Assembly: GCA_963805975.1 (NCBI GenBank)
Contig: CAWDVR010000003.1
Coordinates: forward strand, 800,001-864,000
Source: an uncultured Acidobacteriota bacterium
GTDB lineage: Bacteria > Acidobacteriota > Thermoanaerobaculia > Multivoradales > SZUA-115
Length of the DNA: 64,000 nt
Direction of reading: 5' to 3'
The position numbers and the translations under genes were made by a program. The notes below the pieces were generated by a model. The model was not told where the DNA came from. It made no database searches and was given only the letters and a program-made list of their open reading frames with translations. This document shows, piece by piece, positions 18,288 to 23,755 of the stretch (its first letter is position 1; every line of letters starts with the position of its first letter).

Positions 18288-18322
18288 GGAAAGGTGGAGG
18301 CGAAATGTGGCGCCGGCGTGGC
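18288..18322 (-). promoter_or_regulatory. Candidate response-regulator binding site upstream of the VIT-vWA gene
   Basis: + strand GGAAAGGT-N8-AATGTGGC-N4-GCGTGGC; the same blocks and spacing recur at 23721-23755. Confidence 0.7.
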
Positions 18323-18374
18323 ACCTGGCCGGCGCCCCTTCCAGTAGACCCTAGTCTTCAGTAGATTTGGCAGC

Positions 18375-19166
18375 GTGAAATCACGACCCCAGGGTCCGAA
18401 GCCGGCCGCCACCGCGGCCCCGCCGGTGGCCGCAGCCCCGCTCGCGGCGCGCGCCGCTCCCCCCGCGACGGCGCGCGTCGCCCTCGTGGACGACGAGCCC
18501 AGCATCCTCGAGACCGTGGGTTTTGCGCTGCGCCGCGAAGGCTATCTGGTCGTGGCGTACCCGGACGGGCTTTCCGCCTGGCAGGCCTTCGAGGAGGATC
18601 TTCCGGACCTCGCGGTGCTCGACATCCTGATGCCGCGGATGGACGGCCTCGAGCTCTGCCGCCGCCTGCGCGGCATCTCGGAGACCGTGCCGATCCTCTT
18701 CCTGACCTCGAAGGACGAGGAGTTCGACCGCGTGCTCGGGCTCGAGATGGGGGCCGACGACTACCTGGTCAAGCCGTTCTCGATGCGCGAGCTGGTGGCG
18801 CGCGTCAAGGTGCTGCTGCGGCGCTCGGCCCTGGCCCAGAACCAGGGCCGGGTGGACGAGGAGGAGCTGCTCGCCGTGGGTTCCCTGGCGCTCGACCTCG
18901 CCCGCCACCAGGCGAGCTGGAACGGCCGGCCGATCCAGCTCACGGTGCGCGAGTTCAGGCTCCTGCTGGCCCTCTCCCGCCACCCCGGCCACGTCAAGAC
19001 GCGCGAGCAGCTCCTCGAGGAGGGCTACCCGCACGACACCTATCTCGCCGAGCGCACCATCGACAGCCACATCAAACGGCTGCGCCGCAAGTTCGCCGAG
19101 GTGGCACCGGAGTTCGACGGCATCGAGACCGTCTACGGCCTCGGCTACCGGTACCGCGTCGAGTGA
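18375..19166 (+). CDS. OmpR-family response regulator (ChvI-like)
   Basis: VDDE, LDILMP phospho-Asp, GADDYLVKPF, wHTH RTIDSHIKRLR..TVYGLGY. Confidence 0.95.
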   Translation: MKSRPQGPKPAATAAPPVAAAPLAARAAPPATARVALVDDEPSILETVGFALRREGYLVVAYPDGLSAWQAFEEDLPDLAVLDILMPRMDGLELCRRLRGISETVPILFLTSKDEEFDRVLGLEMGADDYLVKPFSMRELVARVKVLLRRSALAQNQGRVDEEELLAVGSLALDLARHQASWNGRPIQLTVREFRLLLALSRHPGHVKTREQLLEEGYPHDTYLAERTIDSHIKRLRRKFAEVAPEFDGIETVYGLGYRYRVE

Positions 19167-19176
19167 GCTGGCTCTC

Positions 19177-21836: not shown

Positions 21837-22250
21837 ATGCGCAAGGCAATCGTCGTTTTCGCCCTCGCCCTCGCCGTGCTCGGCGTTTCGATGGCGCGCG
21901 CCCAGGGCCCCACCACCCAGCCCGGGCTGTTCTTCACCATCGTGAACCAGTGCCCGTCGCCGGTCCGGGGCTTCGCCGTGGGCGACACGCTGTGCCTGCT
22001 CAAGATCAACACGGCGACTTTCACCCGGGCGATCTTCCAGGGCGACATGGTGGCCGGCGAGAAGAAGTCCGCCATGGCCTGCACGGGCGCCGACGGCCAG
22101 GCCGTGGTGCTGTTCGTACCCTCGGTCTCGATGCCGGTGCAGGCGGTCAAGGTGAACGTCAAGCCCGGTCAGGCAGTGCCCATCCCCAGCACTTTCTGTG
22201 GCAAGGCGGTGGGCGACGAGGCTCCGGGCAGCCAGTTCAAGACTGAATAG
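21837..22250 (+). CDS. Small secreted hypothetical protein (4 Cys, beta-rich)
   Basis: RBS AGGAGG; signal peptide MRKAIVVFALALAVLGVSMARA; GC3-biased codons. Confidence 0.72.
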   Translation: MRKAIVVFALALAVLGVSMARAQGPTTQPGLFFTIVNQCPSPVRGFAVGDTLCLLKINTATFTRAIFQGDMVAGEKKSAMACTGADGQAVVLFVPSVSMPVQAVKVNVKPGQAVPIPSTFCGKAVGDEAPGSQFKTE

Positions 22251-23646
22251 CGGGTGCCTCCCGGAACTCGAGCCGGCGCCAGTCGAGGCGCCGGGTGAGG
22301 AACATCACCAGGCCGAGGATCGCGAAGAGGCCGATCGCGCCCATCAGCAGCGCGTAGTCCTCGGCCTGGAGCAGCAGGTAGAGGTAGCCGTAGAGTGTCG
22401 CCAGGCAGGCGAGAAGCAGCCCGGCCCAGCTGGCGCTGCGCAGCAGGCTCTTCGCGTAGCCGGCGATCAATCCTGAGCAGCCTGCCGCGGCCAGCGCGTA
22501 GGCCAGGCCGAAGCCCAGGTGCTCCGAGAGCGCGAGCAGCAGCAGGTAGAAGAGCACCAGCGCGAAGCCCACCAGCAGGTAGTGCATGGCGTAGAGACGC
22601 ACCGGGCTCACCAGCTCGATCAGGAAGAAGGTGAGTGTGGTGAGGAGTATGAAGAGCAGCGCGTACTTCACCGAGCGCTCGGTCTTCTGGTAGTCGTCCG
22701 CCGGCAGAAAGAGGCTCACCCCGAACGACGCGGCGCTGAGCTGGAAGGAGTTCACCTGCTCCCCGGCCCACTGCTGTGGCACCCCGCGGGCGAGGAAAGG
22801 AATCTTCCAGGTGGCCTCGAAGCCTTGCTCGGTGATCCGGTGCGAAGCCGGCAGGAAGGCGCCGCCGAAGCTGGGGGAGGCCCACGGCGAGGTCAGCGCG
22901 ACGCTCGTCTCCTCGCCGGCGGGGAAGAAGTGCAGGTCCCCCGAGCCGCGCAGCACCAGCTCGAAGGAGAACGGGACGAGGCCCTCGGCCCCGGCGCCCG
23001 CTAAGGCCGTGGGGGCGAGCGCGAGCGGCGCGTGCAGGCCGACCGGCAGGAGCTGGGTCTGCGTGGTGCCCGGCAGGAAGGGGTGGGGCTTCCCGGCCCA
23101 GGAGAGGACGGCGCGTTCCTGCAACCCTCGCACCTCGCTCAAGCCCACCACCAGCCGCGCCTGGTTCCACAGCACCTCGTCGTCCGGCTTGATCCCCAGG
23201 GCCGCGAGATCCGGCGCCGCGAACGTGCCTTCGACCGTGAGCCGTGTCTGGTACACCACCGCCTCGAAGATGCCGCGCTTCCTGATCTCGGGCTCGATCG
23301 TGCCTCGCCAGGCGATGGTCCGCGGCAGGAAGTAGCCGGTCCACGGCACGATCACCGGCTCGGGCAGCTCGCGACGGTCCTTGGCGGCGGCCTTCAGATC
23401 CTCCTCCGTGGGCTTGATGACCTCGCGGTAGGGAAGGACGAGGATCGGCCCGGTGAGAGCCTGCGCTCCTCCCCACACGCCGGCTACCTCGTCGGCCACT
23501 TCCGTTTTGCGCTGCGCGCGTTCGCGAATTAGGCCGGTGACCTGGGCCACCGGGATCAGCAGGGCCAGCACCACCAGCCCCAGCACCGCCAGCTTGATCG
23601 GCGTCGACTCGGTCCAGCGGCGGGGGACTTCGTGTGGAGTTTCCAT
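22237..23646 (-). CDS. creD: Cell envelope integrity inner membrane protein CreD
   Basis: W.SPSF.GAFLP, DYQKTERSVKYALLF, HYLLVG.ALVLFYLLLLALSEH, EDYALL.G, TRRLDW. Confidence 0.94.
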   Translation of the reverse strand: METPHEVPRRWTESTPIKLAVLGLVVLALLIPVAQVTGLIRERAQRKTEVADEVAGVWGGAQALTGPILVLPYREVIKPTEEDLKAAAKDRRELPEPVIVPWTGYFLPRTIAWRGTIEPEIRKRGIFEAVVYQTRLTVEGTFAAPDLAALGIKPDDEVLWNQARLVVGLSEVRGLQERAVLSWAGKPHPFLPGTTQTQLLPVGLHAPLALAPTALAGAGAEGLVPFSFELVLRGSGDLHFFPAGEETSVALTSPWASPSFGGAFLPASHRITEQGFEATWKIPFLARGVPQQWAGEQVNSFQLSAASFGVSLFLPADDYQKTERSVKYALLFILLTTLTFFLIELVSPVRLYAMHYLLVGFALVLFYLLLLALSEHLGFGLAYALAAAGCSGLIAGYAKSLLRSASWAGLLLACLATLYGYLYLLLQAEDYALLMGAIGLFAILGLVMFLTRRLDWRRLEFREAPAIQS

Positions 23647-23720
23647 GTCATTCCTCCTGGGAAGGGATCTCGATGGCGAGATTCCAAGCCGCTGCCGTGG
23701 CACGGATGCGGCGAGGATGA

Positions 23721-23755
23721 GGAAAGGTCGGGGAGGAATGTGGCCGCGGCGTGGC
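23721..23755 (-). promoter_or_regulatory. Second copy of the candidate regulator site, upstream of creD
   Basis: + strand GGAAAGGT-N8-AATGTGGC-N4-GCGTGGC. Confidence 0.7.

Follow-up and report, generated by a model that had tools for sequence, protein, structure and literature searches.

The window analysed here comprised 64,000 nucleotides (positions 800,001 to 864,000 of contig CAWDVR010000003.1, assembly GCA_963805975.1) from an uncultured Acidobacteriota bacterium of the order Multivoradales (class Thermoanaerobaculia), and the analysis concerned a sequence element that lies in it twice, upstream of a sortase operon and upstream of creD. The element, described in an initial annotation as the motif GCCACGC-N4-GCCACATT-N8-ACCTTTCC, was located on the minus strand, without a mismatch, at positions 18288-18322 and 23721-23755. 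The ATG codons at 18240 and 23646 lie 47 and 74 nt downstream of it, in agreement with the distances of about 48 and 75 nt given there.

The first copy precedes the gene for a marine sortase target (16201..18240, minus strand), a homologue of Shewanella SO2195 with VIT and vWA domains and a C-terminal LPAGS, hydrophobic helix and basic tail, which passed TIGR03788 with 739.6 bits (cut-off 551.65) and matched Pfam VIT and VWA_3. The class GN sortase gene (15425..16204, minus strand) has a predicted GTG start that overlaps the stop codon of the target gene; its product contains the His, Cys and Arg motifs and passed TIGR03784 with 182.8 bits (cut-off 158.25). The second copy precedes creD (22237..23646, minus strand), which encodes an inner-membrane envelope-integrity protein (473.6 bits, cut-off 275) and is present as a single copy in the genome. 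The gene names assigned initially were thus retained, since sortase target, class GN sortase and CreD all scored above the NCBIfam cut-offs. Between the two promoters, on the plus strand, are an OmpR-family response regulator gene (18375..19166), whose product is sister to PghR/PdsR and has a ChvI-like recognition helix, and a sensor histidine kinase gene (19177..20799), whose product has a ChvG-type periplasmic sensor and no CBM9 match. A gene for a TonB C-terminal domain protein (20826-21614, plus strand) begins 26 nt after the kinase gene and may be co-transcribed with it.

No further copy of the 35-bp motif was found in the window when up to 3 mismatches were tolerated, and no match (0/100) was obtained in dinucleotide shuffles of the window. 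Over both strands of the entire genome (5.36 Mb), the motif matched exactly at two positions; the one other match had 5 mismatches, and nothing was detected at 1-4. An extended matrix, constructed from 20 sites of relatives without G000 and G001, gave the two window sites the highest scores in the genome (34.8 and 30.8), and the next-best position (20.5) looked coding; the predicted regulon in this genome therefore consists of two promoters. On the same grounds, namely the two exact genome matches and the extended-matrix ranking, a mobile or scattered repeat, against which the initial annotation had cautioned, was rejected. A structured RNA was also rejected, because an Rfam scan of 15000-25500 returned one chance match elsewhere (E 0.44).

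The motif was also recovered de novo from relatives. Expectation-maximisation (EM) on 23 creD upstream regions, again without G000 and G001, yielded an 11-bp direct repeat, TCGCCACA.TTTCGCCACGATC (written at length, TCGCCACA.TT TCGCCACGATC), with a log-likelihood of 171 versus 68-72 in three shuffles. A core matrix was made from the 14 best creD sites and applied to promoters outside the training set. For sortase-target homologues, upstream matches on the gene strand at p<=0.015 were obtained in 11 of the 26 loci scored for the order (30 fetched) and included 9 of the 13 closest; scores on the opposite strand never exceeded 7.5. In a GTDB set of 80 loci (78 scored, two having no upstream DNA), the match was found in 22/35 loci with a divergent regulator (opposite strand, 1/35), 13/38 without an adjacent regulator and 0/5 with a tandem regulator, and opposite-strand matches across all 78 came to 3. 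In other phyla, too, the creD-trained model thus finds the repeat upstream of sortase-target genes, and orthologous creD and sortase-target promoters of relatives contain the motif, whose absence from such promoters had been proposed as a refutation. Among alphaproteobacterial sortase targets without an adjacent regulator, four still have the repeat (L110, L118, L120 and L123); for L110 and L123, the top regulator match in the genome is ChvI-like. No creD was found in five alphaproteobacterial genomes searched.

Alignment of the sites gave a promoter anatomy common to Thermoanaerobaculia and Gammaproteobacteria, in which 11-bp direct repeats form half-sites at offsets 0, 11 and 32, further, weaker half-sites follow at 43 and 54, and the -10 hexamer TnnAAT occupies 71-76. 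The two strong direct repeats have the approximate consensus YYGCCACAWTT. The third half-site is weaker, corresponds to the ACCTTTCC region and is invariant only in CC; where it overlaps ACCTTTCC, TTTCC stands here in place of Shewanella TTGCC. Conservation was counted in 22 hand-picked sites of relatives with a clear box and this spacing, several creD sites of other spacing being left out, and in the -10 region T-12 and T-7 were each kept in 21/22, G-14 in 20/22 and A-11 in 1/22. In the sortase-target promoter (all minus strand), half-site 1 (GTGCCACGCCG, 18314..18324) has the conserved GCCA core; half-site 2 (GCGCCACATTT, 18303..18313) is the strongest (GCCAC kept in 20-22/22, final T in 21/22); half-site 3 (TTTCCCCGCCT, 18282..18292) is degenerate (CC in 22/22) and aligns with Shewanella TTGCCA. 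The predicted -10, TGAGAT (18248..18253), is without A-11 and lies 7 nt before the ATG, so that a leaderless mRNA is predicted; the 7-nt gap is identical in G001 and G004. In the creD promoter (also minus strand), half-sites 1 and 2 (GGGCCACGCCG CGGCCACATTC) occupy 23736..23757, half-site 3 (TTTCCTCATCC) and the weaker in-phase half-sites 4 and 5 (TCGCCGCATCC, GTGCCACGGCA) occupy 23693..23725, and the predicted -10, TGGAAT, is at 23681..23686, with an AGGAGG Shine-Dalgarno sequence before the ATG.

The 35-bp extent and the identity of all 23 block positions, as described initially, are exact for the two window sites. However, the element is longer and ends in the conserved -10 box, which had been missed, and the full identity overstates the consensus: in the same 22 sites, the first six letters of ACCTTTCC were kept in 7-12, and the last two letters of GCCACGC in 6 and 8. 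The two window copies resemble each other more closely than the family consensus demands, ACCTTTCC is common to both promoters only in G000 and G001, and creD and the sortase target alternate in the slot divergent from the regulator among relatives. All this would fit a promoter stretch that was duplicated locally and has no function today. However, the functional positions are conserved in spite of differing spacers, and the architecture recurs in other phyla. The latter largely refutes this explanation, which was judged extremely improbable, but duplication may be the source of the extra identity between the two window copies.

The orientation of the element bears on a further alternative, in which the repeats act on the opposite strand: they would be a sigma-54 (-24/-12) promoter, or they would serve the divergent genes (the regulator gene at 18375 and a glycosyltransferase gene at 23817) as an operator. 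Sigma-54 promoters have the consensus GG-N10-GC, a spacing matched by the plus-strand copies of TGGC, which are 11 nt apart; furthermore, activity of the pghRK promoter under cell-wall antibiotics was measured in Shewanella, according to the accessible part of bioRxiv 2023.05.05.539549. In the aligned sites, however, the -12 reads TGGC and not TTGC, the third half-site and the -10 stand at fixed distances on the GCC strand, and the element was always on the same strand as the downstream gene, its orientation tracking creD, the sortase operon and bla regardless of the divergent gene. The regulator gene also has a TAnnnT -10 of its own, the predicted canonical TAGATT at 18362..18367 (plus strand), 7 nt before the GTG. 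An opposite-strand function is accordingly regarded as very unlikely, and a secondary autoregulation of the regulator gene through the same site is possible. Of 28 regulator genes from the order, 22, that of the window among them, have a TAnnnT hexamer 5-8 nt before an in-frame start, which supports the reading of the hexamers as -10 boxes and suggests that the box-linked ones depend on an activator. The regulator gene appears to be leaderless (window 18362-18377; relatives L061-L090).

The regulator was placed by phylogeny. In a careful tree of 45 proteins, from which the support values are taken (a tree of 81 rows was a quick search), the Thermoanaerobaculia regulators grouped with PghR (98/93), ChvI joined them (99/95) and CreB fell outside. 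ChvI rows were identified by best match and, in L255, by a gene context that we take to be pckA-chvI-chvG. The regulator of the window is the only member of the ChvI/PghR clade among nine full-length OmpR-family matches in its genome, the other eight lying outside. Its recognition helix is nearly identical to that of ChvI (RTIDSHIKRLRRKF versus RTIDSHIKRLRKKF), and a PghR and a ChvI-type regulator share 41% identity. The kinase matched Pfam Stimulus_sens_1 (30.1, cut-off 29.8), stayed below the cut-off of Sensor_TM1 (24.8, cut-off 26.6) and had no CBM9 match. In hhalign comparisons, its sensor aligned with ChvG at 99.6% (E 6e-24, 230 columns) and with PghK and CreC at 98.1% each, the likeness to PghK residing in the membrane-proximal part; a comparison with CBM9-less PghK (392 columns) was not used because of spurious N-terminal extensions in some rows. 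The ChvI motif has been given as GCC repeats 11 nt apart, GCC-N8-GCC (available parts of PMC9731502 and bioRxiv 2021.04.17.440287; the Sinorhizobium meliloti motif is cited second-hand), and both window sites and the consensus fit it. The readable supplementary files of PMC9731502 contained no sortase or creD entry. Among the 61 genomes of the order (this one counted), creD was found in 30 and close kinase homologues in 36, that is, in 35/60 relatives. Stimulus_sens_1 was matched in 5/199 other Acidobacteriota genomes, a lower bound since the model scores near its cut-off; one unpublished genome was left out.

A natural exchange of regulators was then used for comparison. At 8 sortase loci with a CreB-clade regulator, the GCC box was found in 0/8 and the cre tag (TTCAC-N6-TTCAC, at most 1 mismatch) in 4/8, and at 30 loci with a regulator of the PghR/Thermoanaerobaculia clade, the cre tag was found in 1/30 and the GCC box in 22/30. 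Two of the CreB-clade regulators (L117 and L132) were tested against the NCBIfam CreB cut-off, and both passed. This swap of box and cre tag with the clade of the regulator is the strongest evidence as to the regulator. The cre tag lies upstream of the sortase target beside CreB-clade regulators in L117, L126, L132 and L162, and CreBC is predicted to control the sortase system in these lineages. In the window, the best cre-tag match in either promoter has 4-5 mismatches of 10, so the precedent invoked initially, the two-component control of creD elsewhere (by CreB), supplies the wrong regulator here. The same evidence bears on the proposal that a different, unlinked regulator, CreB-like or of another family, binds the box. 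For it speak the control of creD by CreB/BlrA in other bacteria (as stated in the part of PMC4689548 available) and the presence of the box in 13/38 loci without an adjacent regulator. These loci may, however, use ChvI or an unlinked PghR (in the five alphaproteobacterial genomes checked, the best match was ChvI-like), and no CreB-clade protein occurs among the nine full-length OmpR-family matches of this genome; with the poor cre-tag matches and the swap, an unlinked regulator is hardly to be expected.

Known targets of PghKR in Shewanella were examined with the matrix trained on Acidobacteriota. Reported targets of activation by PghKR are blaA, relV and pdsO-SO2195-SO2196, and creD is listed in the PghR regulon (available part of PMC13712847); sortase genes and creD were raised in a pdsS mutant of S. 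algae (available part of PMC11580497); the co-regulation of sortase genes and creD is thus already published for Shewanella. The matrix matched 27 of 30 Shewanella creD promoters (30 of 52 fetched), versus 4/30 on the opposite strand, and the promoters comprised 22 of a GCC form and 8 of a TCTCCA form. In the 22 (L187-L208), the distance between the repeats and the -10 is about 10 nt (one helical turn) shorter than in pdsO promoters. A pattern drawn from pds and creD sites gave exactly two perfect matches per genome in 5 genomes, creD and a second site, the latter confirmed as the regulator-pdsO gap in 2/5; this result is circular, as pds and creD sites had served for the design. Class D beta-lactamase promoters, used in no training or pattern design, contained the box in 5/5 (scores 18.6-23.0, p=0.005) versus 1/15 relA/spoT/penicillin-binding protein (PBP)-like controls. 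Matches with two mismatches near Shewanella pds sites in five other genomes indicated no consistent further target, and the first 5 Shewanella/Agaribacter genomes searched yielded no creD. A word search (motif, electrophoretic mobility shift assay, footprint, binding) of the available texts of PMC13712847, PMC11580497 and bioRxiv 2023.05.05.539549 returned no operator, and the literature examined, including a word search of the available text of the Shewanella regulon reconstruction PMC3223726, contained no PghR operator, no link between ChvI and PghR and no paper on a Thermoanaerobaculia sortase, subscription papers being sparsely covered. A PghKR manuscript named as submitted in PMC13488354 may contain the PghR site.

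Overall, the two elements are very probably copies of one conserved promoter that is likely activated by the adjacent ChvI/PghR-type regulator, and one cell-wall-stress regulon is predicted. The initial proposal of the adjacent regulator and a shared envelope regulon is supported by the orthologous promoters, the lack of scatter, the co-variation with the regulator clade and the Shewanella PghKR/PdsSR system (available parts of PMC13712847 and PMC11580497). Several observations weigh against this reading. EM on 11 sortase-target upstream regions alone gave no motif above shuffles (66 versus 57-59), 4 of the 13 closest sortase-target homologues had no box within the 500 nt scanned, and 8 of the 30 PghR/Thermoanaerobaculia-clade loci fell short of p<=0.05. 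The core matrix alone scored the window sites at no more than 13.7, which is mediocre, with 47 genomic positions reaching 15 or more. Related genomes are non-independent samples; the regulator of L091, for example, is identical to that of G001, and this locus is not independent. Regulator and kinase lie below all NCBIfam cut-offs (regulator: best model TIGR03787, 243.7 versus 335.7, and CreB model, 221.5 versus 273; kinase: TIGR03785, 213.3 versus 612.2, and ChvG model, 247.9 versus 740). Chromatin immunoprecipitation sequencing in Caulobacter gave a different ChvI consensus, TTGC-N3-GCAA (available part of PMC9731502). The TCTCCA repeat in 8 of 30 Shewanella creD promoters (L179-L186) scored weakly. 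Finally, relV-like genes, PghKR-dependent according to reports, were without the box in 5/5 Shewanella genomes, so that either relV is an indirect target or the model is weakened. TCTCCA also replaces TTGCCA before two sortase operons (L149 and L151) whose regulator has a divergent recognition helix, and this variant possibly represents a shift in specificity.

By analogy with the OmpR/PhoB family, the ChvG-like kinase would phosphorylate the regulator, one head-to-tail dimer would occupy the strong upstream pair (approximately -83 to -62), and further dimers would occupy the weaker half-sites (approximately -51 to -30) over the -35 region; cooperative binding would then recruit RNA polymerase with the housekeeping sigma factor to an otherwise weak -10. 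By analogy with Shewanella PghKR and Agrobacterium ChvGI, the trigger would be peptidoglycan damage and the output a sortase-processed VIT-vWA protein and CreD, which would stabilise the envelope. For the regulator gene, which has its own canonical -10, basal expression is predicted. Least certain among these steps is the signal, because the kinase has no CBM9 match. Alternatively, the regulator might bind the box and repress, or respond to another signal such as acid, osmotic or membrane stress, as some ChvG systems do. The sensor is closest to ChvG and is without the CBM9 that PghK reportedly needs, half-sites over the -35 could block polymerase, and CreBC regulates creD atypically in Stenotrophomonas (available part of PMC4689548). 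Conversely, almost no transcription would be expected, in the absence of an activator, from a -10 that has neither A-11 nor a consensus -35, and PghR and ChvI are described as activators that both respond to PBP1a loss or beta-lactams (available parts of bioRxiv 2023.05.05.539549 and PMC9731437). Repression or another signal is thus considered unlikely, less so than the other alternatives discussed.

The window system is PghKR-like in its working, with hallmarks of ChvG/ChvI outside that clade, and is not CreBC. With PghKR (PdsSR) and the dedicated sortase system of Shewanella (SO2192-SO2196; TIGR03784/85/87/88/89) it shares a regulator-kinase pair divergent from the sortase target, a class GN sortase, a sister-clade regulator, reported co-regulation of creD, and the same repeat, with the same -10 spacing, as before pdsO. 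It differs in its Acidobacteriota host, in a kinase without a CBM9 match, in the physical linkage of creD, in the scores of regulator and kinase, which do not reach the cut-offs of TIGR03787 and TIGR03785, and in having no pdsO (OmpA-like) in the cluster, to which the search for pdsO was confined; the target ATG directly follows the promoter. ChvG-ChvI lies in the gene context pckA-chvI-chvG, whereas the neighbours here are the sortase target and the TonB_C gene. The ChvG-type sensor, the nearly identical recognition helix, the GCC-N8-GCC repeat and a role in cell-wall stress (predicted for the window system) are in common with ChvG-ChvI (ExoS-ChvI, BvrRS), but the window system lies outside the Alphaproteobacteria, to which PMC9731437 confines ChvG-ChvI, its predicted regulon comprises two promoters and is not global, and its regulator is closer to PghR in the tree. 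CreBC/BlrAB resembles it in the control of creD through 11-bp direct repeats (predicted for the window system) and in a homologous sensor fold, and adjoins sortase clusters in some lineages, but has the half-site TTCAC in place of GCCAC, belongs to a separate clade and has no cre tag in the window promoters. Of the operator, the Acidobacteriota system and the kinship of ChvGI and PghKR, none was found in the literature examined.

We lean towards a wider reading, in which ChvGI, PghKR and the Acidobacteriota system would form one family of cell-wall-damage sensors reading one GCC direct-repeat operator, the box would be the unreported PghR site, through which pdsO, creD and the chromosomal class D beta-lactamase gene of Shewanella are activated directly, and the sortase/CreD module would have passed between this family and CreBC, its operator being exchanged accordingly. 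A regulon that is defined by genetics but whose sites are unmapped would thereby become testable at the sequence level, the predicted direct targets of PghKR being pdsO, creD and blaA and not relV. A candidate element is named behind the inducible Shewanella beta-lactamase, the putative progenitor of OXA-48-type enzymes according to the available part of PMC13712847. Two systems treated as unrelated would be linked (PghKR has been described as less than 20% identical to all known two-component systems), and ChvG-type signalling would extend beyond the Alphaproteobacteria. The promoter also offers a route to envelope-protection genes, by which alpha-2-macroglobulins and a large, unnamed secreted protein have already come up as candidates.

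Further candidate sites were assessed in this genome and in its relatives. An additional regulon member before a MoxR gene (C1:487166) was rejected, the site being absent in 5/5 relatives, as was a triple repeat upstream of an M23 peptidase gene in the opposite orientation, which was kept in G001 only (1/5 relatives). Two contig-end sites near a transposase, presumably of the IS110-like family, were rejected because the spacing does not fit. No box was found within the 600 nt scanned before the alpha-2-macroglobulin gene of this genome, and no homologue of the secreted proteins described next was found in G000 with the queries used. In relatives, a box precedes the genes for two homologous secreted proteins (45% identical, >1000 aa, no Pfam match) at G001:C72:14572 and G049:C25:327540 (L305 and L309). 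The full box with a -10 lies before alpha-2-macroglobulin genes in three relatives (G007:C195:7689, G035:C183:15383 and G044:C9:149530; L302, L312 and L313), and alpha-2-macroglobulin is a candidate for a second, protease-inhibitor-like envelope protein in the regulon. A box was also found before genes for small membrane proteins at G007:C195:47689, G005:C370:923 and G009:C4:54401 (L303, L304 and L308); those of L303 and L308 had no Pfam match, and the one in G009 adjoins the regulator-kinase pair.

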